A stretch of 39,338 bases of DNA from Alphaproteobacteria bacterium (GTDB lineage Bacteria > Pseudomonadota > Alphaproteobacteria > JALCBB01), in the NCBI GenBank assembly GCA_028066985.1, contig JALCBB010000004.1, forward strand, positions 1 to 39,338. The letters are read 5' to 3'. The first letter of the stretch is position 1. Every line of letters starts with the position of its first letter. The position numbers and the translations under genes were made by a program. Positions 146-35,724 of this stretch are shown in pieces. Under the pieces are notes generated by a model, which saw only the letters and a program-made list of their open reading frames with translations, ran no database searches and had not been told where the DNA came from.

Positions 146-3100
146 TCAGCCCAATGACTCCACGCGCGCCGCGCAATACTTAAACTCCGGAATCTTCCCG
201 TACGGATCCAACGCCGAATTCGTCAGCAAATTCACACTCGCCTCCGCAAAACAAAACGGCACAAAAATCACTCCCTCAGGAACCTGCCGATCCCCGCGCA
301 ACAGTATCTCTATACTCCCGCGCCGCGTCGCAATACGCACCCGATCGCCCGCCGCAAACCCCAAACCCTCCATCTCGCGCGGATTCAACATCGCGACCGC
401 CTCAGGCTCCAGATCATCCAAAACCCCCGAACGCCGCGTTATCGCCCCCGTATGCCAATGCTCCAGCAAGCGGCCCGTCGTCAAAACCATCGGATACTCA
501 ACATCCGGAACCTCCGCGGGCGCGACCAATTCCGTCGCCACAAAGCGTCCGCGGCCGCTCGCCGTCGGAAAACCCTCGCCGAACAATATCTCGCGTCCGG
601 CGCCCGCCTCCGAATCCGCCGGATAAGTCACCGAATCCTCGCGCTCCAATCGCTCCCACGAGATGTTCGCCAGCGACGGCATCAGTTCGCTCATCTCCGC
701 ATACACCTCGCGCGGATGCCCGTAATCCCACGACAAGCCCGTCCGCCGCGCCATCTCCTGAATCAGTTCCCAGTCCATGCGCGCCTCCCCCGGCGGACGC
801 AAAACCGCCCGCCCCATCTGTATCTGGCGATTCGTGTTCGTATAAGTGCCGACCTTCTCCGCATGCGCCGACGCCGGCAGCACCACATCCGCGAACCACG
901 CGGTCTCGGTCAGGAAGATGTCCTGCACCGCCAGATGCTCCAACTTCGCCAATGCCGCCCGCGCATGCGCCTGATCCGGATCCGACACCGCCGGATTTTC
1001 GCCCAGAATATACATCCCGCGCACCGCCCCCGCCAGAATCGCCTCCACCACCTCAACCACCGTCAGCCCCGGCGACGGACTCAACCCGACACCCCACGCC
1101 GACTCAAACACCGCGCGCACCGAGTCGTCCGCGACCGAACGATAGTCGGGATACACCATCGGTATCAGTCCGGCGTCGGACGCGCCCTGCACATTGTTCT
1201 GTCCGCGCAGCGGATGCAAGCCCGTGCCCGCGCGTCCGATCTGTCCGGTAGAAAGCGCCAGCGCTATCAGACAGCGCGCGTTGTCGGTGCCGTGAATGTG
1301 CTGGCTGATGCCCATCCCCCAGAAAATAATGGAGCGCTCCGAGCGCGCATACAGCCGCGCGACCTCGCGCAAAACCTCCGCCTTCACGCCGCATACCGAC
1401 TCCATCGCCTCGGGCGAAAAGTCGCGCAGCGCCTTTTTCAATTCCGCGAAGCCCTCGGTATGCGCCTGAATGTACTGCGCGTCGGTCAGACCCTCTTCCA
1501 CGATCACATGCAGCATCGCGTTCAACATCGCCACATCACTGCCGGGACGAAAGCGCAGATCATACGCCGCGTGACGCGACAACTCCGAACCGCGCGGGTC
1601 GGCAAGAATCAATTTCGCGCCGGCGCGCGCCGCCGCCTTCAGGTAGGTCGCCGCCACCGGATGATTCTGCGTCGGACGCGCCCCGATCACGAAGATGCAG
1701 TCCGACTCCAGCGCCGCGGTGAACGGCGCCGTCACCGCGCCCGAACCGATGCCCTCCATCAGCGCCGCCACCGACGACGCGTGGCACAGCCGCGTGCAGT
1801 GATCCACATTGTTGCTGCCGAAACCCTGGCGCACCAGTTTCTGGAAGAGATACGCCTCCTCGTTGCTCGCCTTCGCCGAGCCGAATCCAGCGAGGGCGTC
1901 GCCGCCGTGCTTGTCGCGGATGCGCGTCAGTCCGCGCGCGGCGAAGTCCAGGGCTTCGTCCCAGGAGGCTTCGCGGAAGTGCGTGAAGGGGTTGTCGGGG
2001 TCAATCTCCATGTCGGCGGACTTCTCGGCGTCCTCAAGGCGAATCAGCGGACGCCGCAGACGGTGCCGGTGATGCACATAGTCAAAGCCGAATCTTCCCT
2101 TGACGCAGAGACGATTTTCGTTCGCGGGGCCGTCGCGTCCGTCAACCTTGACGATTCGCTCAATGACATCGCCGTTGCCGTCATTGACGGGGACAACGAC
2201 ACCGCCGCCGTTTTTGTCGTCCTTGTTAGCGACGGAGACGACAACACCGCCATTGTCGTCATTGTTTTTGTCGCCACCTTTTTTGTCACCGTCACTGTCA
2301 CCGTCATTGACAGAGGGGACGACAACACCGCCGCCATTTTTGTCGTCCTTGTTAGTGACGGAGACGACAACGGCGGCGCCGTTTTTGTCCCCTTTATTTT
2401 TGTCACCGTCGCCGAGACCATTGACATTCGCCGTGTAGACGCGCGTCTGACATCCCACGCCGCAATACGGACACAGCGTATCCACGCTGCGCTCGGGCGT
2501 GAGGGCGCGGCGTCCGTCTTCGGCGGAGACCAGCCGCGACTCCATCAGCGCGCCCGTCGGACACGCCTGCACACACTCGCCGCACGCCACACAACTGCTC
2601 TCGCCCATCGCGTCGCCAAGATCAAAAATGACGCGCGAGCCGCGTCCGCGTCCCGCCATGCCGATGACATCGTTCACCTGCACCTCGCGGCAGGCGCGCA
2701 CGCAGAGTCCGCAGTTGATGCAGGCGCCGAGTTGCACGGTCATCGCGGTGTGCGAGCGGTCGGCGGCGATCTCGCCGTGCGACGGGAAACGGCTCGTCGT
2801 CACGCCGACGCCTTCAGCCTGACGCCAGAAAACTCCGTCGGGGTCGGGCGACATCTCGCGCGCCGGCTGATCCGCGACCAGCAGTTCAAACACAAGTTCG
2901 CGGCTGCGGCGCGCGCGCTCGTCGCCGAGACGGACTTCCATTCCCGCCGTCGGACGCCGAATGCACGACGCCGCCAGCACGCGCTCGCCCTTGATCTCAA
3001 CCATGCATGTCCGGCAGTTGCCGTCGGCGCGGTAGCCGCTCTCGCCGCTGTGACAGAGGTGCGGGATTTCAACGCCGTGACGCCGCGCGGTTTCCCATAT

Positions 3101-3187
3101 TGTTTCGTTCGCGCGCGCCGTGACGGGCTTGCCGTCTATGGTGAACGGGATCTCCTCGGCGGGCGCGGGTTTTGTGCGACTGGACAT
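146..3187 (-). CDS. fdhF: Formate dehydrogenase alpha subunit (Mo/W-bis-MGD, Cys ligand, N-terminal Fe-S domains) with ~87-aa low-complexity insertion
   Basis: IPHLC...CRTCMV 2Fe-2S domain; CINCGLCVRAC and CVACGECVQACP 4Fe-4S motifs; CPYCGVGC...LCVKG; NVDHCTRLCHASS; LRGQNNVQG; C-terminal LTTGRLLEHWHTG and KIPEFK. Start moved from 3298 to the ATG at 3187 (MSSRTK), just before the first recognisable domain. Confidence 0.92.
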   Translation of the reverse strand: MSSRTKPAPAEEIPFTIDGKPVTARANETIWETARRHGVEIPHLCHSGESGYRADGNCRTCMVEIKGERVLAASCIRRPTAGMEVRLGDERARRSRELVFELLVADQPAREMSPDPDGVFWRQAEGVGVTTSRFPSHGEIAADRSHTAMTVQLGACINCGLCVRACREVQVNDVIGMAGRGRGSRVIFDLGDAMGESSCVACGECVQACPTGALMESRLVSAEDGRRALTPERSVDTLCPYCGVGCQTRVYTANVNGLGDGDKNKGDKNGAAVVVSVTNKDDKNGGGVVVPSVNDGDSDGDKKGGDKNNDDNGGVVVSVANKDDKNGGGVVVPVNDGNGDVIERIVKVDGRDGPANENRLCVKGRFGFDYVHHRHRLRRPLIRLEDAEKSADMEIDPDNPFTHFREASWDEALDFAARGLTRIRDKHGGDALAGFGSAKASNEEAYLFQKLVRQGFGSNNVDHCTRLCHASSVAALMEGIGSGAVTAPFTAALESDCIFVIGARPTQNHPVAATYLKAAARAGAKLILADPRGSELSRHAAYDLRFRPGSDVAMLNAMLHVIVEEGLTDAQYIQAHTEGFAELKKALRDFSPEAMESVCGVKAEVLREVARLYARSERSIIFWGMGISQHIHGTDNARCLIALALSTGQIGRAGTGLHPLRGQNNVQGASDAGLIPMVYPDYRSVADDSVRAVFESAWGVGLSPSPGLTVVEVVEAILAGAVRGMYILGENPAVSDPDQAHARAALAKLEHLAVQDIFLTETAWFADVVLPASAHAEKVGTYTNTNRQIQMGRAVLRPPGEARMDWELIQEMARRTGLSWDYGHPREVYAEMSELMPSLANISWERLEREDSVTYPADSEAGAGREILFGEGFPTASGRGRFVATELVAPAEVPDVEYPMVLTTGRLLEHWHTGAITRRSGVLDDLEPEAVAMLNPREMEGLGFAAGDRVRIATRRGSIEILLRGDRQVPEGVIFVPFCFAEASVNLLTNSALDPYGKIPEFKYCAARVESLG

Positions 3188-3270
3188 TGCTTCGCAGTGT
3201 ATACCTCTATGCCTCTTCGGGCAAGAATTCTGAAATTCGGCTGTATACGGCGATTTCGGGGCGGCTTTTT

Positions 3271-3303: not shown

Positions 3304-3346
3304 TAGGGAGGTGGAGGATAACGGGCTATTTGCAGGAGCGGGAACC

Positions 3347-4663
3347 GTGACTATGACAAGTCAAATTTTAATTTTTTGCGGGCAGCGCCCGCAGGCATCA
3401 GTTGGCGCGGTTCGCTTGAGCCGGCGCCGTGAATGTCTGAGTCAAACTCCCACTAATGCCGGAGGCTTGCTCTTCGGAACTTTTCGGAGTGCGACCTCTG
3501 GCATTAGTGGGCGCGGACTCCAGACTAGCCGCGACAGCGGCTCAAGCGAACTGTACCCGCAGACGGCTGGCGGCACTGCCGCCAAATTAAAATTGTTTCT
3601 CTCTTTAATTAAGAGACGAACGACCATCACGGCGTCCGTCGGGGGCAGGCTTATTAAGTCTGTCGCCGTCGCCGGTCTCGCCGTTCTTGTTCTCGGCGTA
3701 AATACCGCCCGGGCGCAGACCCTCAACATCTACACCGGCAGACACTACCCCGCCGACCAGATGCTCTACGATCTCTTCCAGTCTCAGACCGGCATCACCG
3801 TCAACGCGCTTGAAGGCAAGACCGGCGCCCTTCTCGAAAGGCTCCGCCTGGAAGGCGACGAAAGTCCCGCCGACCTCTTCATCACCGTTGACGCCGGCAA
3901 TCTCTGGCGCGCGCGAAATCTTGACCTGCTCGCGCCGGTCGTGTCCGATGTTCTTGACGCGAGGATTCCGCCGCATCTTCGCAGTCCTGAGAATCTCTGG
4001 TTCGGATTCGCGACGCGCAGCCGCATCGCGTTTTACAATCCGCGGGTTCTCGCCGCGCCGCCGCGCCGATGGAGCGACCTCGCCCTTCCCGAATACAGGG
4101 AGCAGATCTGCGCGCGGAGTTCGTCCAACATTTACAATCTGTCGCTGCTCGCCTCGTTCATAGAGCGCGACGGCGAAGACGCCGCCGCGCGCTGGGCGCA
4201 GGGCGTCGTCGCGAACTTCGCGCGTCCGCCGGCGGGCGGCGACACCGACCAGTTGCGCGCCGCCGCCGAGGGCATCTGCGGAGTCGCGATCGCCAATCAC
4301 TATTATTACGCGCGGCTGCTGGCGTCCGAAAGCGCGGCGGACAACGATGTCGCGGCGGCGCTGGTGCCGCTCTGGCTCGGCGAGGAGGGCGACGGCGTGC
4401 ATGCCAACATTTCCGGCGGCGCGCTGCTGCGGTCGGCGAAGAATCGGGAGGAGGCGGTGGCTTTTCTGGAATTTCTGGCGAGCGACCGGGCGCAGGAGAT
4501 TTTTGCGGAGGCGAACAACGAGTATCCTGTTGTTGCCGGTGTCGCGCTTTCGCCGGTTCTTGATGTTCTCGGGCTTCATCGGACGGAGGAGGTCAATGTT
4601 TCGGTTTACGGACGCAATCAGGCTTTGGCGCAGCGCATTTACGACCGCGCCGGCTGGCAATGA
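3347..4663 (+). CDS. futA: Fe(III) ABC transporter substrate-binding protein (FutA/FbpA family); start uncertain, 5' part runs through a repeat element
   Basis: LNIYTGRHY, SPADLFITVDAGNL, RSSSNIYNLSL, GGDTDQ, ANHYY and NNEYP motifs; signal-peptide-like LIKSVAVAGLAVLVLGVNTARA. AGGAG at 3334-3338 precedes GTG 3347 (alternatives GTG 3311, ATG 3353). Confidence 0.85.
   Translation: MTMTSQILIFCGQRPQASVGAVRLSRRRECLSQTPTNAGGLLFGTFRSATSGISGRGLQTSRDSGSSELYPQTAGGTAAKLKLFLSLIKRRTTITASVGGRLIKSVAVAGLAVLVLGVNTARAQTLNIYTGRHYPADQMLYDLFQSQTGITVNALEGKTGALLERLRLEGDESPADLFITVDAGNLWRARNLDLLAPVVSDVLDARIPPHLRSPENLWFGFATRSRIAFYNPRVLAAPPRRWSDLALPEYREQICARSSSNIYNLSLLASFIERDGEDAAARWAQGVVANFARPPAGGDTDQLRAAAEGICGVAIANHYYYARLLASESAADNDVAAALVPLWLGEEGDGVHANISGGALLRSAKNREEAVAFLEFLASDRAQEIFAEANNEYPVVAGVALSPVLDVLGLHRTEEVNVSVYGRNQALAQRIYDRAGWQ
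3363..3636. repeat. Composite repeat E2: two converging arms around a ~30-bp linker, plus a TTAATTAA-containing flank
   Basis: Arm + at ~3370-3466 and arm - at ~3497-3590; linker and flank match the reverse complement of parts of 33992-34170. Confidence 0.88.
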
Positions 4664-15392: not shown

Positions 15393-15782
15393 TCACCTCT
15401 TCCGAGAATCCAACACCCGCGCCCGCGACGCCGCCCGTCGCGCTCCCTCATCATCTCCAGCCAGCAACGCATCCACCGCCTCCGACATCGCCCGCGTCCG
15501 CGCCGCGCGCCGCCGCCGCTCCCTCAAACGCCGAAACCACCCCCGCAGCCACACCGGCGACAAACACAACAACAACACCCACCGCAGCAAAATCAACAGC
15601 ACCCACGACACCATCAACACCAATACCCCCAGCAGAAATACCCCCGCCTCCACACGAAAACCATCCGCGCCCGCCGTGGAACTCAACTCAACCGATAAAC
15701 GCCACGGCCAGGTCGCTCCCCACAACAATAACGCCACGAAAAACGACAGCAACGCCAGAATCGTCAGCGCGCGCAAGGTCAT
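15393..15782 (-). CDS. hemY: Short HemY_N-like membrane protein (probably truncated)
   Basis: Two hydrophobic helices, then WFRRLRERRRRAARTRAMSEAVDALLAGDDEGARRAA typical of HemY_N; expected position after hemC-hemD-COG4223; only 129 aa. Confidence 0.6.
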   Translation of the reverse strand: MTLRALTILALLSFFVALLLWGATWPWRLSVELSSTAGADGFRVEAGVFLLGVLVLMVSWVLLILLRWVLLLCLSPVWLRGWFRRLRERRRRAARTRAMSEAVDALLAGDDEGARRAASRARVLDSRKR

Positions 15783-15792
15783 CGCTCAACCC

Positions 15793-17301: not shown

Positions 17302-18191
17302 TACAGCGACAGAATCTCCATTTGCCAGGGGAGCAGCGTCCGCGCCGTGTCGGCGACGGCGGGGCTGCGGGCGAGTCCGAGTATATGCGTACAGCGGGGT
17401 TCGTGTCCAGAGGCGCGGACAAGAGACGCGAACAGCCGCGCCGTACGCGCCGAGGGCAGGACTACGCCCGCGCCCGCGCCGCCGCGCCGCGCCATTTTCG
17501 GCGCCGCGCGCAGGACTGCTCTTGCGCCGCGCGGCAGATATTCCGCCGCCTTCATTTCGTAGAGAATCAGGGATTGGAGGTTGTAGCCGCCGGCGAGGAG
17601 GCTCTTTGCCGGTTCGGGAGACGCGTGTACGCCTCGCAGGTGCAGGAGCGGAGACGAAAACGCGTGTTTAAGGCGTACGGTTTCGGCGAGGGAGGCGCCG
17701 TTTCCGTCGGCGGTGCAGATGGTCTCAAAGCCGAATTTTTGCGCCGCCGCCGCCGTTTCGGCTCCGACGGCGTAGACGGGCAGCCGACACAGCCCCTCCT
17801 TCAGCCTGTACGCGTTTTCGCTGTCCGCCTTATACGCGTTCTGGTCGTCTGGACTATAAGCGTCCTGATTGCCCGAATTGCGCGTATTTTGGTCGTTTGG
17901 ACTGTAAATGTCCCGTTCGCCTGAATCGCCCGTGTTCTGGTTGTCTGACATATACGCGTTTTTGCCGTCCAAGCCATACGCGTTAAGAGCGCGTACGGCG
18001 TTGGCGCTCGTAAGAATGAGGGCGGAATCGGTTTTTCGCGGAAATTCAGCGAGTTTTTGAAGCACCTCCTCGGGCTGTCCGGCACGGCGGAAACTCCACA
18101 CGGGCGCGGAGATCGCCTCGTGTCCGAGCAGCGACAGGCGCCGCGCCGTCTCCCGCGCCTGATGCGGCGCGCGCAGAACAAGCACCCTCAT
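17301..18191 (-). CDS. hemD: Uroporphyrinogen-III synthase with internal 8-aa tandem repeat insertion
   Basis: MRVLVLR, ILTSANAV, VYAVGAETA, LHLRG, LYE, SARTA; overlaps the hemC stop (ATGA). Confidence 0.88.
   Translation of the reverse strand: MRVLVLRAPHQARETARRLSLLGHEAISAPVWSFRRAGQPEEVLQKLAEFPRKTDSALILTSANAVRALNAYGLDGKNAYMSDNQNTGDSGERDIYSPNDQNTRNSGNQDAYSPDDQNAYKADSENAYRLKEGLCRLPVYAVGAETAAAAQKFGFETICTADGNGASLAETVRLKHAFSSPLLHLRGVHASPEPAKSLLAGGYNLQSLILYEMKAAEYLPRGARAVLRAAPKMARRGGAGAGVVLPSARTARLFASLVRASGHEPRCTHILGLARSPAVADTARTLLPWQMEILSL
17793..17984 (-). repeat. Degenerate 24-bp (8-aa) tandem repeat x8 inside hemD
   Basis: NAYGLDGK/NAYMSDNQ/NTGDSGER/DIYSPNDQ/NTRNSGNQ/DAYSPDDQ/NAYKADSE/NAYRLKEG. 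Confidence 0.8.
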
Positions 18192-25341: not shown

Positions 25342-25514
25342 CGCCTCAAAGTTCCTCTCTCGTTCCCATGACCCGAATCGCCATGAACTCCCGACACCCT
25401 ACACCAGTTTTTCAGAAAAAACACCCCCCCGAAAAGGCGGCGCCGTCAATGCCTCCCCTGAGCCAAAATACGCCCCGACTACACAAAAAAAGCCGGCGCG
25501 CCTACAATCTCCAC

Positions 25515-26597
25515 ATGCTCATCCTCGCCATAGAAAGCACCTGCGACGAAACCGCGACCGCGCTCCTCAAGACCACGCCGCAGCACCACATCCTCGCGCA
25601 GCACATCACTCCGCAAACACAGCACCGGCGCTTCGGCGGAGTCGTGCCCGAAATCGCCGCCAGACAACACCTCGCAAACCTGCCCGCGCTCCTCGGACAA
25701 ACCCTCCGCGGACAGCCGCAGCCCGGCGCCGTCGCCGCCTCGTGCGGGCCTGGACTCATCGGCGGACTCATCACAGGCGCCTCCGCCGCGCGCGCCCTCG
25801 CCCTCGCCTGGCAGACGCCCTTCCTCGCCGTCAATCACCTCGCCGCGCACGCCCTCTCGCCGCGGCTCGCGTGGCCCGAACTGAAGTTTCCCTACCTGCT
25901 GCTGCTCGCCTCGGGCGGACACTGCCAGACCCTCGCCGTCTCCGCGCACGACAAATTCCGCCGCTACGGACAAACCCTGGACGACGCCCCCGGCGAAGCC
26001 CTGGATAAAGCCGCCCGCCTCCTCGGACTCGGATGGCCCGGCGGACCCGCCCTGGAAAAACACGCCGCGACCTTCCAGCCCGAAAATCCGCAGCAGCGCC
26101 GGGACGCCCTCGCGCTCCTGCCCGATCCCCTCGCGCGGCGCGGCGACAGCGACGGCGACGGCGCGAACCTTGATTTCTCCTTTTCGGGACTCAAAACCGC
26201 CCTCGCCCGCAAAGTAAACAATTCCCCCGCCGCTTCGGTCGACACCGCCGCGCTTGCCTTCGCCTTCCAGGAGCGCGTCATGCGGAGCCTCGCGCGCGGC
26301 GCCGGACGCGCCCTCGCGCGCTTTCGCCGGGAGCACGCCGCCGACACGCCCCTTCTCGCCGCCGGCGGAGTCGCCGCCAACCGGCGTCTTGCCGCGCTGC
26401 TTTCCGAGGTTGCCGTGCGGCACGGCGCTGAGTTCCTTCCTCTTCCTGCGGGACTTTGCACTGACAACGCCGCGATGGTCGCGCATGCCGCGGGCGAGCG
26501 TGTCCGTGCCTGCGGTGATGGAGAGCCGTTTCCTGACGACGGATTTTGCACTCCGTTGCGTCCGCGCTGGCCGCTTGACGCCGGCGCTGTCGCCTGA
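25515..26597 (+). CDS. tsaD: tRNA N6-threonylcarbamoyltransferase TsaD
   Basis: ILAIESTCDET, GGVVPEIAARQH, GPGL, VNHLAAH, SGGH, DDAPGEALDK, DFSFSGLKT, GGVAAN, CTDNAAM; start set at ATG 25515. Confidence 0.95.
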   Translation: MLILAIESTCDETATALLKTTPQHHILAQHITPQTQHRRFGGVVPEIAARQHLANLPALLGQTLRGQPQPGAVAASCGPGLIGGLITGASAARALALAWQTPFLAVNHLAAHALSPRLAWPELKFPYLLLLASGGHCQTLAVSAHDKFRRYGQTLDDAPGEALDKAARLLGLGWPGGPALEKHAATFQPENPQQRRDALALLPDPLARRGDSDGDGANLDFSFSGLKTALARKVNNSPAASVDTAALAFAFQERVMRSLARGAGRALARFRREHAADTPLLAAGGVAANRRLAALLSEVAVRHGAEFLPLPAGLCTDNAAMVAHAAGERVRACGDGEPFPDDGFCTPLRPRWPLDAGAVA

Positions 26598-26647
26598 CCT
26601 TTGGCGCGAATTCTGCTATTCTGTTTTCGGAACCGAGGAGACCTCCT

Positions 26648-27055
26648 GTGGCGTACTGGCTTGTCAAGTCTGAACCTGAAGACTACTCGTGGCAGGATCT
26701 CCTGCGCGAGCGTCGCGCGCTCTGGGACGGCGTGCGCAACGCCGCCGCCCGCAACAATCTCGCGCGGATGCGAGTGGGCGACCGTGTATTTTTCTATCAT
26801 TCGGGCGGTCCGCGCGAGATTGTGGGGATCGCGAAGGTTGTGCGCGCGGCGCTGCCGGATCCTGCTGACGGTCGCTGGCTTGCGGTGGAGATCGCGCCTG
26901 CGAAGACATTGTCGCGTCCTGTCGCGCTGTCGGAGTTGCGCGGCGACGGTCGCGCGGCGCGGATGGTTTTGCTGCGGCAGCCGCGTCTTTCGGTGCAGCC
27001 TGTGGGTGTTTCGCACTGGAGGCTTGTTCTTGAGCGCGGCGAGGGGACGAAGTAG
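26648..27055 (+). CDS. EVE domain-containing protein
   Basis: YWLVKSEP, WDGVRN, MRVGDRVFFYHS, RLSVQPV; GAGGAG RBS before GTG. Confidence 0.92.
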   Translation: MAYWLVKSEPEDYSWQDLLRERRALWDGVRNAAARNNLARMRVGDRVFFYHSGGPREIVGIAKVVRAALPDPADGRWLAVEIAPAKTLSRPVALSELRGDGRAARMVLLRQPRLSVQPVGVSHWRLVLERGEGTK

Positions 27056-27070
27056 CGCCGTGTTTTTGTC

Positions 27071-27471
27071 ATTAATTAAGGCGACAAACGAAGAACGATC
27101 TTCGGCATTAGTGGGAGTTTGACTTAGACATTCACGATAGCCGCTCAAGCGAACCGCACCAACTAATGCCCGCAGGCGCCGCCTGCAAAAAAAATTAAAT
27201 TAAAAAGAAAATAATTTATTTAATTAACCCCATTAATTGTCTATTAATAATTAACAGAACAAATCTCTTTTTAACACATTAATTGTCTATTATTAATTAA
27301 TGAAAAACAATTTATTTTAATTGACCCCTTAAATGGTCTAATTGATTTTTAATTTATTTTTTTGCGGGCTAGCCCGCACCCGTTAGTTGGCGCGGTTCGC
27401 TTGAGCCAACACTGTGAATGTCTTAGTCCCACGCCCACTAATGCCAAAGAGCGCACTTCGTGGTCTCTTAA
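27071..27471. repeat. Composite repeat E5: diverging arms around an extended AT core
   Basis: Arm - ~27100-27200, core with ATTAATTGTCTATTA duplicated, arm + ~27352-27450; both ends finish in TTAA. Confidence 0.9.
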
Positions 27472-30400
27472 TTTTCGGGGAGGCCGCTCAGCAACTTCAA
27501 ATGCCGGTTCGCCAGCAACAGCATAGACAAGCGCGGGTTCGCATCCACCCGCAACTCCGACAACAACTCGTGCGCCCGCTCATACTCCCGCCGATGCCGG
27601 CTCACCCAGCGGCCGATCGTCGCCTCCGGCTCCAAACCACGCCGCCCGCCCTGCGACAATATCCGCATCGTCAAAGCCGCCTGGTGAAAGTCCGCGTCCT
27701 CCAGCAGACTCTGAACCGCCAGTTTGTCCCACAATGTCAGACGCGGCACCTTCCCCGCCGCCGAACGCAGCCAGTCATACCCGAAATACTCCCCCACCCC
27801 GAAAAACAAACCCGCCACCTCCGCCACAGGCAGACCAAAACGCTGCGCCAGGTCCGATATCCCGCACGCCGACGACAAAAACGGCAGAAACGCCACCTCC
27901 CGCGCCAATGAACCGACAATCCCAAGTTCCGTAAATCGCTCCACCCGCCCCGCGAAACGCGCCAGACTGTCACCCTCAAGCAAATCCGCGCCCATCTCCG
28001 CCAGAGCCTCCACATCGCCGCGATAGCGCGCGACCTGCACCCCGATCGCGCCGTCGGCGCCGTTGCGCAAAAACCACGCCGTCGCCAGTTCGCAGAGACG
28101 CGCCGCCTCCACCAGCACCGCCTCGTCAGGACGGCGCGGATCAAAATCCATCGCCTCCGCAAGACGCCACAGACGCGGAATGGAAAACAACGCCAGCGTC
28201 ATTATCCACGCCCGCACCACCGCCTCGCTCTCGCTCCCCGTGCGCTCGCCGATCTCGCTCACAAACGCCACGCCCATCCGATTGCCGACGCCGTTCGCCA
28301 GCAGCATCGCCGTGATCTCGCGCCGCAGCGGATGCCGCAAAATCTCCGCCGAATAACGCCGCGACAACACCCCGGGAAAATACGCCAGCAACTCCGACTC
28401 CAGAAACGAATCCTCAAGCAGGTCCGAACCGATCAGGTCGTCATACAGGGCGTTCTTCGTGTGCGCCAGAAGCACAGACAACTCCGGACGCGTCAGACCC
28501 AGGCCGCGGCGGTTTCTGTCCTCAAACTCCTCGGCCTCCGGCAGACCCGACAGGCGACGGTCTAATTCATGGTGTCGCTCCAGATGCCGTATCACATGAC
28601 GCAGCCGGTCGCTCAGCGCGACGCTCAAGCCCTCCATCACGCTCAGACTCTGCACCTGCAGAAAATTATGACGCAGGACATGCGCCGCCACATCCGTCTC
28701 CATTGAGCCGAGCAGCCGGTCGCGCGCCGCGCGCGACAACTCGCCGCGCGACTCCGCGCCCGCCAGCAGAATTTTGATGTTCACCTCGTGGTCGGAGCAG
28801 TCCACGCCCGCCGAGTTGTCAATGAAGTCGGTGTTGATGTGTCCGCCGCAGGTCGCGTATTCAACGCGCCCGGCCTGGGTCACGCCGAGATTCGCGCCCT
28901 CCGCCACCACCAGCGCGCGCACCTCGCGGCCGCGGACGCGAATCGCGTCGTTGGCGTGGTCGGAGAGCGCCGCGTCGCTCTCATGACTGCCGCGCACATA
29001 AGTGCCGATGCCGCCGAACCACAGCAGGTCGGCTTCGGCGCGGAGAATCGCGCGCATGATGTCGGCCGGCGGCATCTCGCCCGCGTCAACTCCCAGACGC
29101 CGCGCCGCCGCCTCGCTCAGGCGAATCTGTTTCTCCGAACGCGCATGCACGCCGCCGCCGCGCGACAACTTCGCCGTGTCAAAATGATTCCAGTCCAGGC
29201 CGCCGCGAAAGAGCCGGCGGCGTTCCGCGAACTGAACGGACGGGTCGGGATTCGGATCCAGAAATATCCAGCGATGATTGAACGCCGCCACCAGCCGCAG
29301 CGAGCGCGACAACAGCAGTCCGTTGCCGAAAACATCGCCCGACATGTCGCCGACGCCTGTCACCGTGAGCGGCGCGGTGTCGGCGTCGCGTCCGAGTTCG
29401 CGGAAATGGCGGCGCACCGACTCCCACGCGCCGCGCGCGGTGATTCCCATCTCCTTGTGGTTGTAGCCCGCCGACCCGCCGGACGCGAAGGCGTCGCGCA
29501 GCCAGAAGTCGTGCGCCGCCGCGACGCCGTTGGCGATGTCGGAAAAATTCGCCGTGCCTTTGTCGGCCGCGACAACAAAATAGGGGTCGGGCGCGTCCAG
29601 ACAGACCACGCCTTCCGGACGCAGAAGGGCGCCGGCGGCGTCGCGGTTGTCGGTCACCTCAAGGAGCGCGGTGATGAAGCGGCGATACGCGTCCTCGCCC
29701 GCGGTCGCCAGCGCCGCGCGCTCGGCGGGCGGACGGCGCAGGGCGAAGCCTCCTTTCGCGCCCGCGGGAACAATCACCGCGTTTTTCACTTCCTGCGCCT
29801 TCGCGAGTCCGAGAATTTCGTCGCGGAAGTCGTCCGGGCGGTCGGACCAGCGCAGTCCGCCGCGCGCGATGCGTCCGAAGCGCAGATGCACGCCGTCAAA
29901 GTCGGGCGCCGAGACGAAAATCTCGGCGAGCGGACGCGGACGCGGCAGAAACTCAAGGCGGCGCGGCTCCAGTTTGAACGACACGACTTCGCCGCTGCGG
30001 CTGTCGGCGCCGGCGCGCCAGTAGTTGCTGCGGACGATCGCGCGCACCACTTCCAGGAGGGCGCGGAGGATTCTGTCCTGCGCGGCGTCCGAGACGGCTT
30101 CCAGGGTTTTTTCAATTTGTGTTTCAATCGCCGCGCCGCGCCGCTTGCGTTCTTTTGCTGTCGCCGTCACCGTCGCTGTCACCGTCGCGGACGATGACGG
30201 GGACATTAACGGTGACGATGATGCGCCCGCTGTCACCGTCTCTGTCACCTTCGCGGACGAGGACATTAACGCGGACGATGACGATGGCGCGCTCGTCGTC
30301 ACCGTTTCTGTCTCCGTCTCCGTCACCGTCGCTGTCTCCGTTTCCCCCGCGTCCGGGCGGAGGCGCGTTTCAAACAGCGACACCAGCATCCGCGCCGCCG

Positions 30401-32954
30401 CCGGCGTCCGCATCAGCGCGTTGGCGATGGAATCCAGACTCGCCGGAAAACGCGTCTGCAGAAGATAACGGCCGAAGGCGCGCAGAATCGCCGCCTCCTG
30501 TGGCGACAGGCCGGCGCGCAGAACCAGGCCGTTCATGCGGTCGTCTTCAATGCGTCCTGTGAGGACGCCGACAAAGCACTCCGCCAGCGCCTCGCGGATG
30601 TGCGCCGGCGGCGGCGGCGAGTCTCCGAGCAGCAGCGAAAAGTCGTAGAGCCAGATGCGGTGGCCGCCCGTCGTGCGGAACGAAAATGTATGCTCCTCGC
30701 GCACGCGGAACCCCATGCGCTCAAGCACCGGCAGCGTGTCCGAGAGCGAAAGTTGATCGCCCGGATGCAGACAGCGAAACGCCAGACGCGCCTCGCCCGA
30801 AGGAACATCGCCGGGCGCGTCATACGCCCGCTCCCCCGGAGACGCGCGCGCGCTCACATGATCGCCGAACCACTCCAGCCGCGCGCGCAGTTCCGCCTCT
30901 TCGGCGACCTGATCCAGCCACGCCAGATCCGCCGACGCCTGAATCGGCGCGTAGCGGTCGGCGTATTCGTCGGAGATGCTGCCGCCCCATCGGCGCAGCA
31001 CCGCCGCCGCGCGCTCCTCGCCGAGGCGTTCTATCAGACGCCGCGCCAGACGCTCGCGCCACGAACGCAGACGCTCGTCAATCTCGCGCGTCAGTCGCTG
31101 CAGCGAAATCTGCCGCCGCGCGCCGATGAAGAGTCCGTGAACGCGGACGAGCGAACTTTCGTCGTGAACGGCGCGGAGGGCGTGCGGCTTCGCGTCCAGG
31201 GCGCGCGCGACATAGCGGCGGATTTCTTCCAGCGCCGCCTCGCTCACATTGAGACGCGGCAGGCAGAGCGTCACATACCAGAGTTGCTCGGTCGTCTCGT
31301 GATGCGCGAAGACCCGCGTGCCGGGCTGTTCCTGAAGGCTTTCTATCGCGACCGCGAGTTCCGCCGTGTGCGGGGCGGGAAGGTGAAACAATTCGTCGCG
31401 CGGCCAGGTGTTGAGGATATGCCGCAGCGCCTTGCCGCTGTGCGACGACTCCGAGAGGCCGGCGCGTCCGGTGATTTCCACGAGTTTGCGGCGCAGGATC
31501 GGAATCTCGCCGATGTCTATGAAATACACATTGGAGGTGAAGAGTCCGACGAACATCGCGAAGACCGGCTTCTGTCCGCGCGCGGCGGGAAGGCGCACGA
31601 CCACGAGGTCCATCGGCGCGTCCAGATGAACGCGCGAGCGCATGCTGGATTTCCAGATCACCAGACGGCCGGGCGGCTCGTGGCGCGTCTTCGGCAGATT
31701 TTCGCGGCGACGGAAAATGCCGAGCGCCCGGCTCTGACTGCGGCGGCGCTCGGTGCCGGTCAGCGCGCCGAGGAATGTGAAGTGATCGTCGGCGAGCCAG
31801 CGCAGGAACTCGGCTTCTTCGGCGCGTTTTTCGCTTCGTGAGGACGAGGCGTCGGCGGCGAGGATGTCGGCGATTTCGCGGCAGCGGCGGCGCATCGCGC
31901 GCCAGTCGGCGACGGCGAGGTTGAGGTCGGCGTAGGTTGAGCGCATCTCGGCGTGAATCTCCGCCATTCGTTCCACCGCGCTCGGCGAGAGTTCTATCAG
32001 CACGACGGATTCGCTTTTGCGTCCGCGTGTTTCGGCTGTTGTGCCGGTCTCGCCGGCCGCGTCGGCTCTGGAGCCGGGGACGAGGTGCGTGAGGCGTCCG
32101 CCGGAGTCGCGGACGACGGAGACGACCGGATGCAGCACGAGGCGCGTCTCAACGCCGAGACGATTCAGCGCCGCGAGGGTGCTGTCGACGAGGAACGGCT
32201 TGTCGTCGTGAATCGTCAGCAGAAACGGACGCGCCGCCGACATCGGGTCGGATGACGGCGCGTGAAAGACTTCAAGAATCTCGCGTCCGCCCGCGCGTCT
32301 TCGCAGACGGCGGAAACTGTGCGCCGCCGCCGCCGCGAGCGCGGCCGGATCGCGCGCGCGCAGGGCTTCGTCGGTTGTGGTGGCGAAGAGGGCGGGCAGG
32401 TAGCGCGCCGCGAGCGCGAGTTCTTTTTTGTCGGACGCGTCGCCGAGGTCAATGCCGCCCGCCTGTCCGGCGAGTGCGAAGAGGGTCTGCGTCGGCTTGC
32501 CGCGCGGCGCGCGCAGGTAGCCGAGGCTTTCGGCGCTCAGGCGGTCGCGCACGCTGCCGGCTTTTGCCTGTCTCTTCGCTCCCGCCTTTGGCGCCGCCGC
32601 CGTTGTCGCCGCCTTTTTTGTCACCTTTTTGGTCGACGGGGACGATGAAGCCGCCCGCCTCGCCGCCCGTTTTTTTGTCGCCGCCGTTTTTGTCCCCGGG
32701 GACGACGAGGCTGCGCGTCCTCTCGCCTTTTTTGTCGCCTGCTTCGCGGACGCCGTTTTTGTCGCCCGCTTCACTGACACCTTTTTGGTCGACGGGGACG
32801 ATGAGGCTGTCCGTCTCCTTGTCCGGCTTTTTTTCGGCGCCGTTTTTGTCGCCCGCTTCGCGGACGCCTTCTTTGTCACCTTTTTGGTCGACGGGGACGA
32901 TGAGGACACCCGCCCTCTCGCCTGTTTTTTTGTCGTGCGTGTCTTTCGCGCCAT
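27468..32954 (-). CDS. gdhB: Large NAD-specific glutamate dehydrogenase with K/A/T-rich N-terminal extension and an internal T/S/E insertion
   Basis: DKPFLVDS, GVHLRFGRIARGGLRWSDR, VKNAVIVPAGAKGGF, DPYFVVAADKGTA, DAFASGGS, GVGDMSGDVFGNG, EGANLG, DNSAGVDCSDHEVNIKI; GGAGAGG RBS. Confidence 0.93.
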   Translation of the reverse strand: MARKTRTTKKQARGRVSSSSPSTKKVTKKASAKRATKTAPKKSRTRRRTASSSPSTKKVSVKRATKTASAKQATKKARGRAASSSPGTKTAATKKRAARRAASSSPSTKKVTKKAATTAAAPKAGAKRQAKAGSVRDRLSAESLGYLRAPRGKPTQTLFALAGQAGGIDLGDASDKKELALAARYLPALFATTTDEALRARDPAALAAAAAHSFRRLRRRAGGREILEVFHAPSSDPMSAARPFLLTIHDDKPFLVDSTLAALNRLGVETRLVLHPVVSVVRDSGGRLTHLVPGSRADAAGETGTTAETRGRKSESVVLIELSPSAVERMAEIHAEMRSTYADLNLAVADWRAMRRRCREIADILAADASSSRSEKRAEEAEFLRWLADDHFTFLGALTGTERRRSQSRALGIFRRRENLPKTRHEPPGRLVIWKSSMRSRVHLDAPMDLVVVRLPAARGQKPVFAMFVGLFTSNVYFIDIGEIPILRRKLVEITGRAGLSESSHSGKALRHILNTWPRDELFHLPAPHTAELAVAIESLQEQPGTRVFAHHETTEQLWYVTLCLPRLNVSEAALEEIRRYVARALDAKPHALRAVHDESSLVRVHGLFIGARRQISLQRLTREIDERLRSWRERLARRLIERLGEERAAAVLRRWGGSISDEYADRYAPIQASADLAWLDQVAEEAELRARLEWFGDHVSARASPGERAYDAPGDVPSGEARLAFRCLHPGDQLSLSDTLPVLERMGFRVREEHTFSFRTTGGHRIWLYDFSLLLGDSPPPPAHIREALAECFVGVLTGRIEDDRMNGLVLRAGLSPQEAAILRAFGRYLLQTRFPASLDSIANALMRTPAAARMLVSLFETRLRPDAGETETATVTETETETVTTSAPSSSSALMSSSAKVTETVTAGASSSPLMSPSSSATVTATVTATAKERKRRGAAIETQIEKTLEAVSDAAQDRILRALLEVVRAIVRSNYWRAGADSRSGEVVSFKLEPRRLEFLPRPRPLAEIFVSAPDFDGVHLRFGRIARGGLRWSDRPDDFRDEILGLAKAQEVKNAVIVPAGAKGGFALRRPPAERAALATAGEDAYRRFITALLEVTDNRDAAGALLRPEGVVCLDAPDPYFVVAADKGTANFSDIANGVAAAHDFWLRDAFASGGSAGYNHKEMGITARGAWESVRRHFRELGRDADTAPLTVTGVGDMSGDVFGNGLLLSRSLRLVAAFNHRWIFLDPNPDPSVQFAERRRLFRGGLDWNHFDTAKLSRGGGVHARSEKQIRLSEAAARRLGVDAGEMPPADIMRAILRAEADLLWFGGIGTYVRGSHESDAALSDHANDAIRVRGREVRALVVAEGANLGVTQAGRVEYATCGGHINTDFIDNSAGVDCSDHEVNIKILLAGAESRGELSRAARDRLLGSMETDVAAHVLRHNFLQVQSLSVMEGLSVALSDRLRHVIRHLERHHELDRRLSGLPEAEEFEDRNRRGLGLTRPELSVLLAHTKNALYDDLIGSDLLEDSFLESELLAYFPGVLSRRYSAEILRHPLRREITAMLLANGVGNRMGVAFVSEIGERTGSESEAVVRAWIMTLALFSIPRLWRLAEAMDFDPRRPDEAVLVEAARLCELATAWFLRNGADGAIGVQVARYRGDVEALAEMGADLLEGDSLARFAGRVERFTELGIVGSLAREVAFLPFLSSACGISDLAQRFGLPVAEVAGLFFGVGEYFGYDWLRSAAGKVPRLTLWDKLAVQSLLEDADFHQAALTMRILSQGGRRGLEPEATIGRWVSRHRREYERAHELLSELRVDANPRLSMLLLANRHLKLLSGLPEN
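32575..32945 (-). repeat. Degenerate coding repeats (SSSPSTKK / ATKTA units) in the gdhB 5' end
   Basis: TTTTTGGTCGACGGGGACGATGA x3 (~32626, ~32782, ~32881) plus a variant; repeated TTTTTGTCGCC. Confidence 0.8.
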
Positions 32955-33903: not shown

Positions 33904-33939
33904 TTAATTAACCTGCACACCCTGTCGTCCGTCAGTGAA

Positions 33940-34338
33940 AAACAATTTTAACTTTGCGGACAACGGCCGCAGGTTCAACCACGATTTAATTGACACCGTG
34001 GCGGTCGTCTGTCCCTTAATTAAAGAGAAAGACAATTTTAATTTTTTGCGGGCAGCGCCCGCAGGCATCAGTTGGCGCAGTTCGCTTGAGCCAACACTGT
34101 GAATGTCTAAGTCAAACTCCCACTAATGCCAGAGACCGCACTTCGAAAAGTCCCGTAGAACAAACCTCTGGCATTAGTGAGCGCTGAATTCAGACTCTTA
34201 AAGCAGTCGCTCAAGCGAACAACACCCACTTAAGCCCGCGGGCGCTGCCCGCCTCAAGCGAACAACACCCACTTAAGCCCGCGGGCGCTGCCCGCCTCAA
34301 GCGAACAACACCCACTTAAGCCCGCGGGCGCTGCCCGC
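33940..34338. repeat. Composite repeat E6: degenerate stub, converging arms and triplicated half-arm
   Basis: Stub AACAATTTTAACTTTGCGGACAACGGCCGCAGG at ~33941; arm + ~34038-34135; arm - ~34165-34252; linker and flank homologous to E2 inverted. Confidence 0.85.
34210..34338. repeat. Perfect 43-bp tandem repeat x3
   Basis: CTCAAGCGAACAACACCCACTTAAGCCCGCGGGCGCTGCCCGC at 34210, 34253 and 34296. Confidence 0.95.
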
Positions 34339-34346
34339 CGCCACTG

Positions 34347-34418
34347 AGCGGGCGAAGGGATTCGAACCCTCGACCCCAACCTTGGCAAGGTTGTGCTCTA
34401 CCCCTGAGCTACGCCCGC
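34347..34418 (-). tRNA. tRNA-Gly (GCC)
   Basis: GCGGGCGTAGCTCAGGGGTAGAGCACAACCTTGCCAAGGTTGGGGTCGAGGGTTCGAATCCCTTCGCCCGCT forms a canonical cloverleaf with anticodon GCC; followed by CAG, not CCA; TGGTATAGT -10-like box upstream. Confidence 0.96.
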
Positions 34419-34440
34419 ATACACAAAAACTATACCACAC

Positions 34441-35724
34441 CTACGGACACACAGGCAACTCCGACGAACCATGCCGCCGCGCCACCGAAAACTCCACCAC
34501 CCCGCCCAGCAAAGCGAACCCCCCCGCCAGCAGAAACAACCCCTCGTATCCCCCCAGCGTGACCAGCAGCCACACATAAAACGCCGACCCCGCCGCCTGA
34601 AACAAACCGAACAAAAACGACGCCCGCGCCCACACCCGCCGGCTCAACACCTCGTCGCCTCCGAGCAAAGCGCGAAGCCGCGCCGCCAGCACTCCGACCT
34701 GCGCGAAATTAAACACCCCGATGCAGAACGACATCACGCCCAGCACCCACACATTAACACTCGCTATCGGAACCAGCAGCGTCACCCCCAGCGCCAGCAA
34801 AGCCACGCGATACGAAAAACCGCGGCCGAACCTGTCGGCGAAGCGTCCGAAACAGAGAGAGCCGAAAATCGCGCCCGCTCCCATCATCTGCCAGTACAAT
34901 CCGCCCGTCGACATCCCGTAACCGAGTTCGCGCACCACAAAATCAATAAACAGCACCTGCGGCATCGCCAGACTCAGCGAACTCAGCGAATACGAAATAT
35001 AACTCCCGACAACCAGACGATGAACCGCCGAATCCACGGACGAATCCGCCGACACCGTTTCTGCCGCCGTCATTGTCGCCGTTGTCGCCGTCATTGCCGG
35101 CGCCGTTTCTGCCGCCGTTCGCGCCGGCGCTGTCGTCACCGTCGCCGTTTCCGTCTGCGAAGACTCGCGGGTGTCGTCGCTCCACGCGGCCCAGGTCAGT
35201 CCCGTCAGCGCCAGACATGTCACGCCCAGACCAAGCCACACCGTCGTCAGACTCAATTCCGACAACAGCGGCACCAGCAGCCCCGACAAAATCAGACCGC
35301 CGCCCATTCCCGAAACCAGGATGCCGCCGATCAGCGCATGATGCGGCGGCGGCGTGCGCGACTGCACATTGAGCATCGCCAGGACCAGCACCACTCCCGA
35401 GGTCATGCCGCCGGCGAAGAGAAAAAACGCGAACCACGCGAACTCGCCGGGACGCGAACACGCGAAAAAACTCAGCGCCGCCACGCACAAAGACGCGCGT
35501 ATCGCCGCTCCGGACGGCACGCGGAACCACGAGAACGACGCCAGCAGCGCGCCGGCGAGGTATCCGAAGAGGTTGCCGACGCCGAGGGTGTAGGTTTGCG
35601 TTTCGGAGAACCATCCTGCCTCTATGGCGAGCGGAATGAGGGTGGCGAAACTGAAGCGCGCCAGTCCCATCGTCACGAGGAGCGCGCAGAAGCCCGAGAA
35701 CACTATGTAGATCGTGCGTGCCAT
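34441..35724 (-). CDS. YbfB/YjiJ-family MFS transporter with T/A-rich central insertion
   Basis: MGLARFSFATLIP, NLFGYLAGAL, GRFADRFGRG; about 12 TM segments; start set at ATG 35724 (the longer ORF is a read-through shadow). Confidence 0.85.
   Translation of the reverse strand: MARTIYIVFSGFCALLVTMGLARFSFATLIPLAIEAGWFSETQTYTLGVGNLFGYLAGALLASFSWFRVPSGAAIRASLCVAALSFFACSRPGEFAWFAFFLFAGGMTSGVVLVLAMLNVQSRTPPPHHALIGGILVSGMGGGLILSGLLVPLLSELSLTTVWLGLGVTCLALTGLTWAAWSDDTRESSQTETATVTTAPARTAAETAPAMTATTATMTAAETVSADSSVDSAVHRLVVGSYISYSLSSLSLAMPQVLFIDFVVRELGYGMSTGGLYWQMMGAGAIFGSLCFGRFADRFGRGFSYRVALLALGVTLLVPIASVNVWVLGVMSFCIGVFNFAQVGVLAARLRALLGGDEVLSRRVWARASFLFGLFQAAGSAFYVWLLVTLGGYEGLFLLAGGFALLGGVVEFSVARRHGSSELPVCP

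Follow-up and report, generated by a model that had tools for sequence, protein, structure and literature searches.

Slippage-generated low-complexity regions in protein-coding genes are familiar from Plasmodium (PMC5762703). In prokaryotes, slippage-generated low-complexity regions of coding sequence (cryptic simplicity) are treated in PMC10120016. Rickettsia palindromic elements (RPEs) are described as discrete units, approximately 150 bp long, for which family consensus sequences exist and in which a peptide is conserved (PMC10969869). Quasipalindrome template-switch mutagenesis, as presented in PMC7202029, PMC8604942 and PMC5941160, acts at single sites, where it makes point-like corrections or inverts a spacer. 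PARCELs, according to PMC2996958, consist of a defined 25-residue domain (DUF285/TIGR02167), an amphipathic repeat found in accessory ORFs and spread by horizontal gene transfer. In the account of PMC6649704, mitochondrial genes of Nematomorpha carry long perfect inverted repeats, with conserved regions of the protein encoded in the arms. The window analysed here is the whole 39,338-nucleotide stretch of contig JALCBB010000004.1 from a small sponge-symbiont bacterium (genome 2.01 Mb), in which GAC/GTC tracts lie in unrelated genes and show likenesses to each of these systems.

Extent, anatomy and reading frames of the GAC/GTC tracts

The genome (95% complete, 199 contigs, 60% GC) contained 585 period-6 GAC/GTC tracts forming 421 islands; this count was obtained after subtracting 92 matches inside the repeat element of the genome, from 677 before the MITE filter. 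Tract abundance is far above chance: when runs of four in-phase copies with a period of 6 were counted, GAC/GTC came first among the 64 triplets (151 + 159 found vs. approximately 0.9 expected), and GACGGNGACAGNGACGGNGAC occurred 33 times in the genome, whereas its reversed control occurred 0 times. The enrichment was restricted to this lineage in the comparisons with 30 relatives and 300 genomes of the class, since the four-GAC pattern was found 310 times here versus at most 30 times in every one of the relatives (three times in the sister genus), and a stricter tract pattern gave 107 matches versus at most 13 across the class genomes. Tracts were contained in 209 of 1317 homology-supported coding segments, that is, roughly one in six conserved genes is touched by them. 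The vocabulary recurs genome-wide, far beyond the tracts listed in the first-pass annotation, and is prominent in lineage-specific insertions, being borne by 94 of the 159 inserts with a length of 12 aa or above, for which polarity was judged against one reference genome with the exceptions of formate dehydrogenase (FDH) and NAD-glutamate dehydrogenase (GDH). Low-complexity inserts are numerous in the sister genus too (1093 measuring 5 aa or more), but their units are varied and hardly any words recur among them.

The tracts are laid out as quasi-palindromes, in which a (GAC-RRY)n arm is followed by a GGCGCC-like centre (GGCGCC/GCCGCC) and a (RYY-GTC)n arm. Both arms were present in 15 of the 159 inserts, compared with seven of 795 random CDS segments and none of 316 sister-genus inserts, and a fold z below −2 was reached by 17% of 107 inserts here versus 8% of 212 inserts of the sister genus. 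The tracts thus contain imperfect inverted repeats capable of folding back, as needed by quasipalindrome template switching. They also display the short-unit periodicity expected of slippage-type, microsatellite-like tracts (Tandem Repeats Finder periods of 6, 12, 24, 30, and 66 in the window), as well as the length-dependent persistence and local unit similarity of such tracts. Persistence climbed with length (N1–N5 of 88103, 5414, 999, 310, and 140, with ratios of 0.06, 0.19, 0.31, and 0.45), and spacer identity within tracts was 0.198 versus 0.094 after permutation (maximum 0.118 in 200 permutations). Identity between spacers i and i+2 was 0.230, indicating 12-nt units.

The tracts occupied all six frames of conserved genes as well as non-coding DNA, and in conserved genes identical words were read with their GAC falling on the first, second or third codon position, in either orientation. 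Outside the homology-supported CDS, which makes up 66% of the genome, 276 of the 585 tracts were located, and, in the unfiltered set of 677 (MITE matches included), 10.5% of tracts had no spanning ORF of 100 codons, versus 8.0% of random sites. Overall, tract frames followed the distribution of the seeds, apart from shifts in the D-frame (58.5% of tracts vs. 40.1% of seeds), the V-frame (8.7% vs. 23.4%) and the position-2 frames (4.6% vs. 10.8%). The codon dialect of the tracts differs from that of the remaining genome, RRY codons accounting for 34% of insert codons versus 15.8% in conserved CDS. The earlier claim of sharing at the DNA rather than the protein level is borne out by the several frames, both strands, non-coding copies and distinct codon dialect.

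Tracts in the window and their alleles

The following tracts were located in the window:

2165–2428, minus strand: insert of approximately 83–90 aa in the FDH alpha subunit, with alternating GAC and GTC arms; peptide DGDKNKGDKNGAAVVVSVTNKDDKNGGGVVVPSVNDGDSDGD...
16770–17070, minus strand: tract region of a conserved hypothetical protein, where T-frame tracts TGTETETATTTGTETATV adjoin the opposite-orientation tract SPSPSSSSPSSSRSRSRSRS
26142–26165, plus strand: short D-frame tract GDSDGDG in TsaD (translation; Pfam TsaD)
30150–30350, minus strand: internal insert of GDH, with the FDH words translated starting one base further on; TETATVTETETETVTTSAPSSSS...TVTATVTAT
32560–32954, minus strand: N-terminal K/T/A/S-rich low-complexity extension of the GDH ORF, holding 32604–32625 (VTKKAAT) and 32835–32850 (TKTAP)
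35040–35165, minus strand: T/A-rich central-loop tract of a YbfB-type MFS transporter; TETATVTTAPARTAAETAPAMTATTATMTAAETV
37612–37640, no strand assigned: non-coding tract just upstream of the start codon of xth (Exo_endo_phos)

The FDH insert divides the Molybdop_Fe4S4 domain at the tip of a beta-hairpin, so that the Pfam match falls into two pieces, and it was missing in seven of seven aligned orthologues. It contains 57-nt direct repeats spaced at 126 nt and five inverted-repeat pairs, and its single-strand DNA fold had a z of −5.18, with 0 of 200 shuffles equally stable. In the AF2 model the insert is predicted to be disordered (pLDDT 21–30 at residues 257–339), flanked by strands at 247–256 and 341–350. 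FDH proteins from different strains (1013, 977, and 973 aa) diverge within the insert, and four insert alleles were found among proteins at least 98% identical, distinguished by indels of GD, of S and of 38–41 aa. The size of the last is close to the 126-nt (42-aa) repeat spacing. Across relatives, the site measures approximately 3 aa in the seven orthologues and approximately 5 aa in the sister genus, rises to 14 aa in a relative with 80% identity and reaches 50–90 aa here, a stepwise series that looks like growth in place.

The internal insert of GDH sits between the HM3 and catalytic domains (Pfam domains stop at residue 867 and restart at 946), has tandem repeats of periods 12, 24, and 66 and a fold z of −2.21, and differs among strain alleles; against the sister genus, gaps were seen at 30168–30185 and 30204–30350. 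Within the N-terminal extension, the contig of another strain omits 32617–32871 (255 nt). The sister-genus GDH has a likewise open, K/A/P/T-rich N-terminus, TKTAP included. Among near-identical strains, compared by protein alleles and contig tables, differences were chiefly whole-unit indels within tracts, and the protein alleles of FDH and GDH (+3, −24, and +19 aa for GDH) combined indels with dense substitutions, no inversion being seen between strains at this protein level. The inter-strain variability raised in the first-pass annotation was therefore found, and the unit-wise length polymorphism among close strains (FDH, GDH, and the 255-nt skip) is as in slippage-type tracts.

In the region of the hypothetical protein, tandem repeats of periods 12, 24, and 30 were detected at 16905–16964, gaps against the sister genus at 16834–16926, 16972–17001, and 17041–17070, and 21–42 gap letters over 15401–17794 in contigs of another strain. 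The MFS tract (residues ~433–475; periods 9 and 12) lies mostly between the Pfam matches to MFS_4 (262–445, the end of which it overlaps) and MFS_1 (489–656). The TsaD tract, with a period-6 repeat at 26136–26163, was unchanged in eight of eight cluster members, and short tracts are thus stable. The tract at 37612–37640 lies beyond the end of the xth ORF (36775–37608) and is thus non-coding.

The three FDH–GDH string pairs reported in the first-pass annotation proved exact (2269–2290 vs. 32604–32625, 21/22; 2374–2389 vs. 32835–32850, 16/16; 2285–2305 vs. 30166–30186, 20/21), as did their peptides, GDKKGGD, DKNGA, and DGDSDGD in FDH and VTKKAAT, TKTAP, and TVTATVT in GDH, although the translation of 32604–32850 is not certain because some database GDH calls (1591–1718 aa) start downstream, without the extension. 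Its further tracts at 16770–17060, 35040–35165, 26142–26165, and 37612–37640 are likewise present. That annotation erred in describing every tract as rich in GAC on the sense strand, since 16770–16850 is antisense to the gene and reads SPSPSSS..SRSRSRS, and the rule is also broken by the alternating arms of the FDH insert. The label "Mic60-like" had no Pfam support, a scan of the hypothetical protein (P0003) returning 0 families.

Origin of the tracts

We consider it moderately probable that these are lineage-specific, hypermutable, cryptically simple tracts, grown in place by slippage and fold-back template switching and filtered by selection. The seeds would be ordinary GAC or GTC, ubiquitous in a 60% GC genome, which would lengthen in place via replication slippage, at first by 6 or 12 nt at a time and subsequently by units of 50–130 nt. 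A complementary arm would be added by fold-back (intrastrand template-switch) copying, giving the (GAC-RRY)n, GGCGCC/GCCGCC, and (RYY-GTC)n succession. Tract growth would be blind to genes; selection would purge frames yielding stops, Arg/Cys/His or Val-rich strings and retain tracts read as D/G/N/S or T/A/V/S/P peptides where these fall in linkers, tails, and loops at the surface. We infer the enzymology of slippage and template switching, as well as the reason why GAC/GTC expands, and it is the anatomy of the tracts that suggests template switching. The nucleotide-level process invoked in the first-pass annotation fared accordingly in part: the quasi-palindromic layout of the tracts makes template switching plausible, while insertion of a pre-formed element is unsupported. 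A repair defect explaining the lineage specificity was not found, MutS, MutL, the PolA 5′-nuclease, RecJ, and XseA being present; SbcD is absent from both this and the sister genus. With one grammar recurring at approximately 420 loci, the tracts are more alike than slippage acting independently at each would predict.

The sharing of words between genes bears on whether growth in place is sufficient. Exact words were common to 264, 82, 26, 5, and 2 gene pairs among inserts at k = 15, 18, 21, 24, and 27, the sharing of 15- to 21-mers lying far above both codon shuffles and a first-order codon Markov model (82 vs. 0.6 and 1.6 at k = 18; 26 vs. 0.1 and 0.2 at k = 21), in agreement with the earlier expectation of k-mer sharing above controls. 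Of 78 shared 21-mers, the 45 listed were all non-periodic and used in different phases and strands, and the 16-mer GACAAAAACGGCGCCG of the second string pair occurred 44 times in the genome, in the peptide contexts DKNGA.. and TKTAPKK. Such sharing would suit concerted evolution, in which tracts arise locally and ectopic short-patch template switching or gene conversion then spreads words of 10–25 nt, inter-tract spread being the main cause of the single vocabulary across loci, frames, and strands. Nevertheless, sharing dropped geometrically, 3- to 5-fold with each extra codon, and fell below an overfitted second-order codon model, so copied patches beyond approximately 2–3 codons of context are not required; exact-word sharing revealed no long copied module among the inserts and no donor–recipient pair was identified. 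We regard this explanation as possible but rather unlikely. The 18-mer sharing above controls implies that some inter-tract exchange or a strongly sequence-specific step must be added to slippage. An active, sequence-specific writing of tracts in this lineage appears to us less likely still; a candidate would be fold-back synthesis primed at hairpins, or the repair of breaks, with a preference for GAC/GTC hexamer hairpins and perhaps with exchange in trans. If it were true, genes and spacers would continuously gain DNA of RRY periodicity that is open in five of the six frames, giving an obligate symbiont an inbuilt supply of novel loops on the surface of its essential proteins.

Transposition in frame of a discrete, palindromic RPE- or MITE-like mini-element that later decays would account for the palindromic character of the tracts and for their in-frame occurrence in unrelated housekeeping genes (FDH, GDH, MFS, and TsaD, for example), and the genome does have a repeat of 800–1000 copies that itself lies in frame within ORFs. 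The tracts, however, are depleted near this repeat (4.1% within 100 nt vs. 10.2% of random sites), no consensus element of fixed length with defined ends was found among the inserts, the few long words (24-mers shared by five gene pairs, 27-mers by two) and the stepwise growth of the FDH site speak against it, and the Rickettsia RPE-like insertion suggested at first is very improbable. Equally little credence is due to the writing of GAC-periodic DNA at breaks or hairpins by an enzyme such as a reverse transcriptase or primase-polymerase, which the confinement to one hexamer family and one lineage might recommend: RVT_1 (PF00078), pursued as a lead of the first-pass annotation, had 0 matches in this genome (95% complete, 199 contigs) and one in the tract-less sister genus, a template locus was not seen by way of word sharing, and strain differences resemble ordinary unit indels. 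Selection at the protein level for D/G/N-rich loops (for cation binding or host interaction, for example), with DNA likeness arising from codon bias, agrees with the D-frame excess over seed expectation and with the placement of inserts in loops, linkers, and tails. As an origin of the tracts it is largely refuted and highly improbable, since the same words give T/V/A or S/P/L peptides and are also found in non-coding DNA, insert codon usage deviates from the genome's own bias, and the FDH insert is predicted to be disordered with freely varying allele lengths; it could still determine which tracts are retained.

For growth in place under a selective filter, the implication is that one DNA-level bias, not protein-level selection, would have written most recent additions to conserved proteins, making this lineage a natural system for slippage and fold-back copying as makers of new coding sequence. 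Long tracts may be usable as length markers distinguishing strains of the sponge symbiont, and caution is needed as hundreds of sites disturb gene callers, alignments, and phylogenies of the lineage.

Comparison with described systems

Like the RPEs described in PMC10969869, the tracts are palindromic DNA that sits in frame within unrelated metabolic genes, adds peptide segments tolerated by the fold and belongs to an alphaproteobacterium with a reduced genome, but they lack a consensus, fixed length and long shared words and appear to grow in place. With quasipalindrome mutagenesis they have in common imperfect inverted repeats in coding DNA whose arms are able to template each other; the difference is the proposed repeated creation of arms at hundreds of loci, which the anatomy suggests. 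PARCELs are similar in that their repeats are coding and show dyad symmetry in the DNA, whereas the hosts here are housekeeping genes, and DUF285 was not found in a Pfam scan of six window proteins. The coding palindromes of Nematomorpha are also inverted repeats inside functional protein-coding genes, whereas the tracts here are short, imperfect, lineage-specific additions. Slippage-generated low-complexity regions share with them short-unit periodic DNA, expansion and contraction among close strains, an origin at the DNA level and disordered segments inserted into otherwise conserved proteins. Unlike such regions, a single hexamer family (GAC/GTC) accounts here for 94 of the 159 inserts measuring 12 aa and upwards, and the tracts are quasi-palindromic, on both strands and in several frames, with an enrichment unseen in the 300 class genomes. 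The nearest parallel is the low-complexity flood of Plasmodium; the palindromic grammar and the use of several reading frames set this lineage apart from it.

GAC/GTC tracts of the window and the genome

The genome holding the window (G000; 2.01 Mb in 199 contigs, 60.6% GC, completeness rating 95%) contributes it as one entire contig, C71 (39,338 bp). Its two main genes were named from homologues as the formate dehydrogenase alpha subunit (FDH) and the NAD-glutamate dehydrogenase (GDH) of an alphaproteobacterial MAG, and Pfam matches supported FDH, GDH, TsaD, a YbfB-type MFS transporter and an Exo_endo_phos nuclease. Public runs containing the GDH stretch came from three studies; some are metagenomes of sponges and others belong to a coded organism. 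The features most relevant to the analysis are the following:

2165-2428, minus strand: insert in FDH, with alternating GAC and GTC arms
16770-16850: tract running opposite to its gene
30150-30350, minus strand: internal insert in GDH
32560-32954, minus strand: N-terminal extension of GDH
37612-37640: tract outside the xth ORF

The first-pass annotation had reported GAC-rich words shared by unrelated genes and read in different frames. Direct inspection of the sequence showed its three string pairs to be exact, the peptides given for the FDH and GDH words to match the actual translations and its other tracts all to be present where it had placed them. The statement that all tracts are GAC-rich on the sense strand does not hold for 16770-16850 and the FDH insert, and the protein labelled "Mic60-like" matches no Pfam family. 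The N-terminal extension that contains the GDH words (32604-32850) is missing from some database gene calls; the sister genus retains an open, similarly basic N-terminus in GDH.

In G000, 151+159 runs of four in-phase GACs at period 6 were counted, versus about 0.9 expected from the triplet frequency, and the GAC/GTC count for four in-phase copies is the highest of all 64 triplets. Among 30 relatives the maximum of the four-GAC pattern was 30, while the sole genome of the same family, that of the sister genus (G001), had 3. A stricter tract pattern was matched 107 times in G000 and 13 times in the runner-up among 300 genomes of the class, where all matches were copies of one 21-mer; the others had at most 3 (the tally takes in the unpublished genome G240 with one match, on which nothing depends). 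Tracts, that is, period-6 runs of GAC or GTC (arms) separated by spacer triplets, were defined by pattern. The initial threshold of at least three GACs gave 677 tracts, of which 92 were removed as motifs within an abundant palindromic repeat of the same genome, leaving 585 tracts grouped in 421 islands. A tie to this repeat was rejected, since only those 92 were repeat pieces and the other 585 are depleted near it.

The spacer triplets between GACs are RRY (purine-purine-pyrimidine) in 70% of cases, chiefly GGT, GGC, AGC, AAT, GAC and GAT. In many tracts a GAC arm is paired with a GTC arm around a GGCGCC or GCCGCC centre, and thus the two strands read alike. With the G of GAC as the first codon base, the arms encode D-x-D and V-x-V peptides (e.g. 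DGDKNGAVNVSV); the frame starting one base further on yields T-x-T and S-x-S peptides (e.g. TETETITAAPSLSS). The FDH insert contains 57-nt direct repeats at 126-nt spacing and five inverted pairs. Folded as single-stranded DNA, it reached z = -5.18 and the GDH insert z = -2.21; relative to their own codon shuffles, 17% of 107 inserts in G000 versus 8% of 212 in G001 had z < -2. The hexamer GGCGCC itself has 3295 copies in G000, about double the simple composition expectation, and 110 in G001, about one sixth of it, an avoidance that might stem from a restriction system.

Marker 9-mers of the abundant palindromic repeat occur 800-1000 times in the 2 Mb, and the sister genome lacks this repeat family. 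In the window, copies lie at about 85, 3452-3500, 4988, 6558, 27104-27437, 34122-34340 (enclosing a perfect tandem array at 34210-34339, 43 nt x 3.0 with 100% matches), 36379-36754 and 39248-39307, and contig depth spikes at these sites in all four runs. Pieces of the repeat are in frame within ORFs having sister-genus homologues in contigs C27 and C189 of G000 (e.g. ...PLALVSEDSLTSHDVGSSERCPQMPAGAARKKIK...), and in C27 such a piece adjoins GAC tracts. In this respect the abundant repeat resembles the RPE insertions of Rickettsia. Along 1-39338, both GC skew and AT skew fluctuate strongly, by as much as 0.3 over kilobase distances.

Lineage-specific inserts and shared words

Alignment of the whole of G001 to G000 gave 1391 homology-supported segments covering about 66-67% of the genome, in which insertions of 5 aa or longer number 555 in G000 relative to G001 and 1093 in the reverse direction; the latter, about twice as many, total 12,595 aa. 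The polarity of inserts was settled by outgroups for FDH and GDH only. The FDH insert is missing from 7/7 aligned orthologues, the site carrying about 5 extra residues in the sister genus and 14 in an 80%-identical relative. Many inserts of G001 likewise consist of low-complexity tandem repeats, though their units are diverse (e.g. NTDTK, GTDSG, ETSAHGRTTI and SESPN); therefore proneness to such growth may be a family trait. The GAC/GTC vocabulary was present in 94/159 G000 inserts of at least 12 aa, versus 163/795 random CDS segments and 54/316 G001 inserts, and both arms in 15/159, 7/795 and 0/316, respectively.

Word sharing was examined across 184 genes, whose inserts of 8 aa or more number 293. 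DNA words are shared beyond shuffled controls, the 18- and 21-mer pairs far exceeding both the codon shuffle and the first-order model.

Table. Gene pairs sharing DNA words, observed and expected
Word length 18: 82 observed; codon shuffle 0.6; first-order codon Markov 1.6
Word length 21: 26 observed; codon shuffle 0.1; first-order codon Markov 0.2

The 585 inserts of G001 gave 2 sharing pairs at each of the two lengths. Of the 78 shared 21-mers, the 45 that were listed are all non-periodic and used in different phases and strands. Long copied modules are not supported as the source of this sharing, because a codon Markov model of second order predicts more of it than was observed; being overfitted, that model sets a conservative bound and does not prove independence. 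Sharing also drops 3- to 5-fold per codon added (5 pairs at k=24, 2 at k=27). Thus, the loci draw on one grammar of short words and have no long module in common.

Reading frames, strain variation and effect on proteins

Gene frames were assigned by homology to one reference, the sister genome. By this means 299 tracts in conserved coding segments received a frame, 10 were partial and 276 lay outside such segments; 209/1317 conserved segments bear tracts.

Table. Frames of tracts in conserved coding segments, sense strand
GAC, codon position 1: 175 tracts
GAC, codon position 3: 45 tracts
GTC, codon position 3: 39 tracts
GTC, codon position 1: 26 tracts
GTC, codon position 2: 10 tracts
GAC, codon position 2: 4 tracts

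These frames parallel those of ordinary period-6 GAC/GTC pairs, but the frame giving D-x-D is enriched, while that giving V-x-V and the position-2 frames are depleted. Sites spanned by no 100-codon ORF made up 10.5% of tracts versus 8.0% of random sites, a count that still included the 92 repeat-internal matches. Frame-proofness was rejected as a strong filter, since the number of open frames (out of 6) is 5.04 for long tracts and 4.74 for random windows of equal length, a small effect. The codon dialect of the inserts differs from the rest of the genome in RRY codons (34% versus 15.8%), GTC+GTT for Val (0.79 versus 0.57), ACG+ACA for Thr (0.79 versus 0.56) and GC3 (0.684 versus 0.752).

Strains were compared from protein clusters and contig tables. 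Contigs identical to the window occur in two studies, and those of the third, about 1-2% different, omit 32617-32871 (255 nt), have 21-42 gap letters over 15401-17794 and break at the internal insert of GDH. Within the FDH insert, the full-length cluster members (1013, 977, 977 and 973 aa, at least 98% identical) are distinguished by indels of GD, of S and of 38-41 aa. The GDH alleles differ by +3, -24 and +19 aa in the N-terminal region and by dense changes in the internal insert. The 7-aa tract of tsaD is unchanged in 8/8 cluster members. Outside the GAC vocabulary, tsaD alleles end in ...AGAVA or ...AGAVAVA (26580-26597), a 6-nt (VA) slip that agrees with a 6-letter gap over 25427-27123 in the contigs of another strain. 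Contigs in all four runs also have a joint at 24273-24386 that skips 112 nt within the 22309-25341 gene; this may reflect either a sequence variant or an assembly joint caused by repeats. A search of JGI metagenome contigs for strain DNA returned just 7 distant relatives (39-44% identity), and the GDH insert region as query matched its own cluster and one 40% relative only.

The FDH insert splits the Pfam match to the Fe4S4 domain. In an AlphaFold2 model from 68 sequences (mean pLDDT 69.7) it is placed between strands 247-256 and 341-350 without secondary structure, and its pLDDT of 21-30 weakly suggests disorder. The internal insert of GDH sits between two Pfam domains, and the MFS tract lies mostly between the two transporter halves recognized by Pfam.

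Origin of the tracts and known systems

Persistence of tracts climbs with length (ratios 0.06, 0.19, 0.31 and 0.45), and units are twice as alike within one tract as between tracts. The simplest account is growth in place, by slippage and fold-back template switching, followed by selection. Common GAC/GTC seeds would expand by replication slippage, to which fold-back template switching may add, the enzymology of both steps and the cause of the GAC/GTC specificity being presumed; the expansion would disregard genes, and selection would afterwards purge frames that do harm. The uniformity of the tracts probably owes something to short-patch exchange between them as well. At least one test contradicts each of three other origins, namely a discrete mobile element, a reverse transcriptase-templated process and selection at the protein level. 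An RVT_1 reverse transcriptase was not found in the 199 contigs of the 95% complete G000, and G001 had one match. Loss of mismatch repair was rejected as the cause, because both genomes have MutS and MutL. The PolA 5′-nuclease domain, RecJ and XseA are likewise present in both, and SbcD, found in neither, is therefore not the explanation for the difference between the genera. None of the machinery genes checked accounts for this genus differing from its sister.

Our search of the main text of openly accessible articles found no account of tracts like these in a sponge symbiont. Slippage-driven low-complexity growth in prokaryotic genes is established (PMC10120016), and in-frame palindromic elements of Rickettsia (PMC10969869), dyad-symmetric coding repeats called PARCELs (PMC2996958) and coding palindromes in the mitochondria of Nematomorpha (PMC6649704) are known. 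None of these systems, as described in the four papers, has the whole combination seen in G000, where one hexamer grammar, quasi-palindromes, several reading frames and non-coding copies occur together at hundreds of loci of one small genome.
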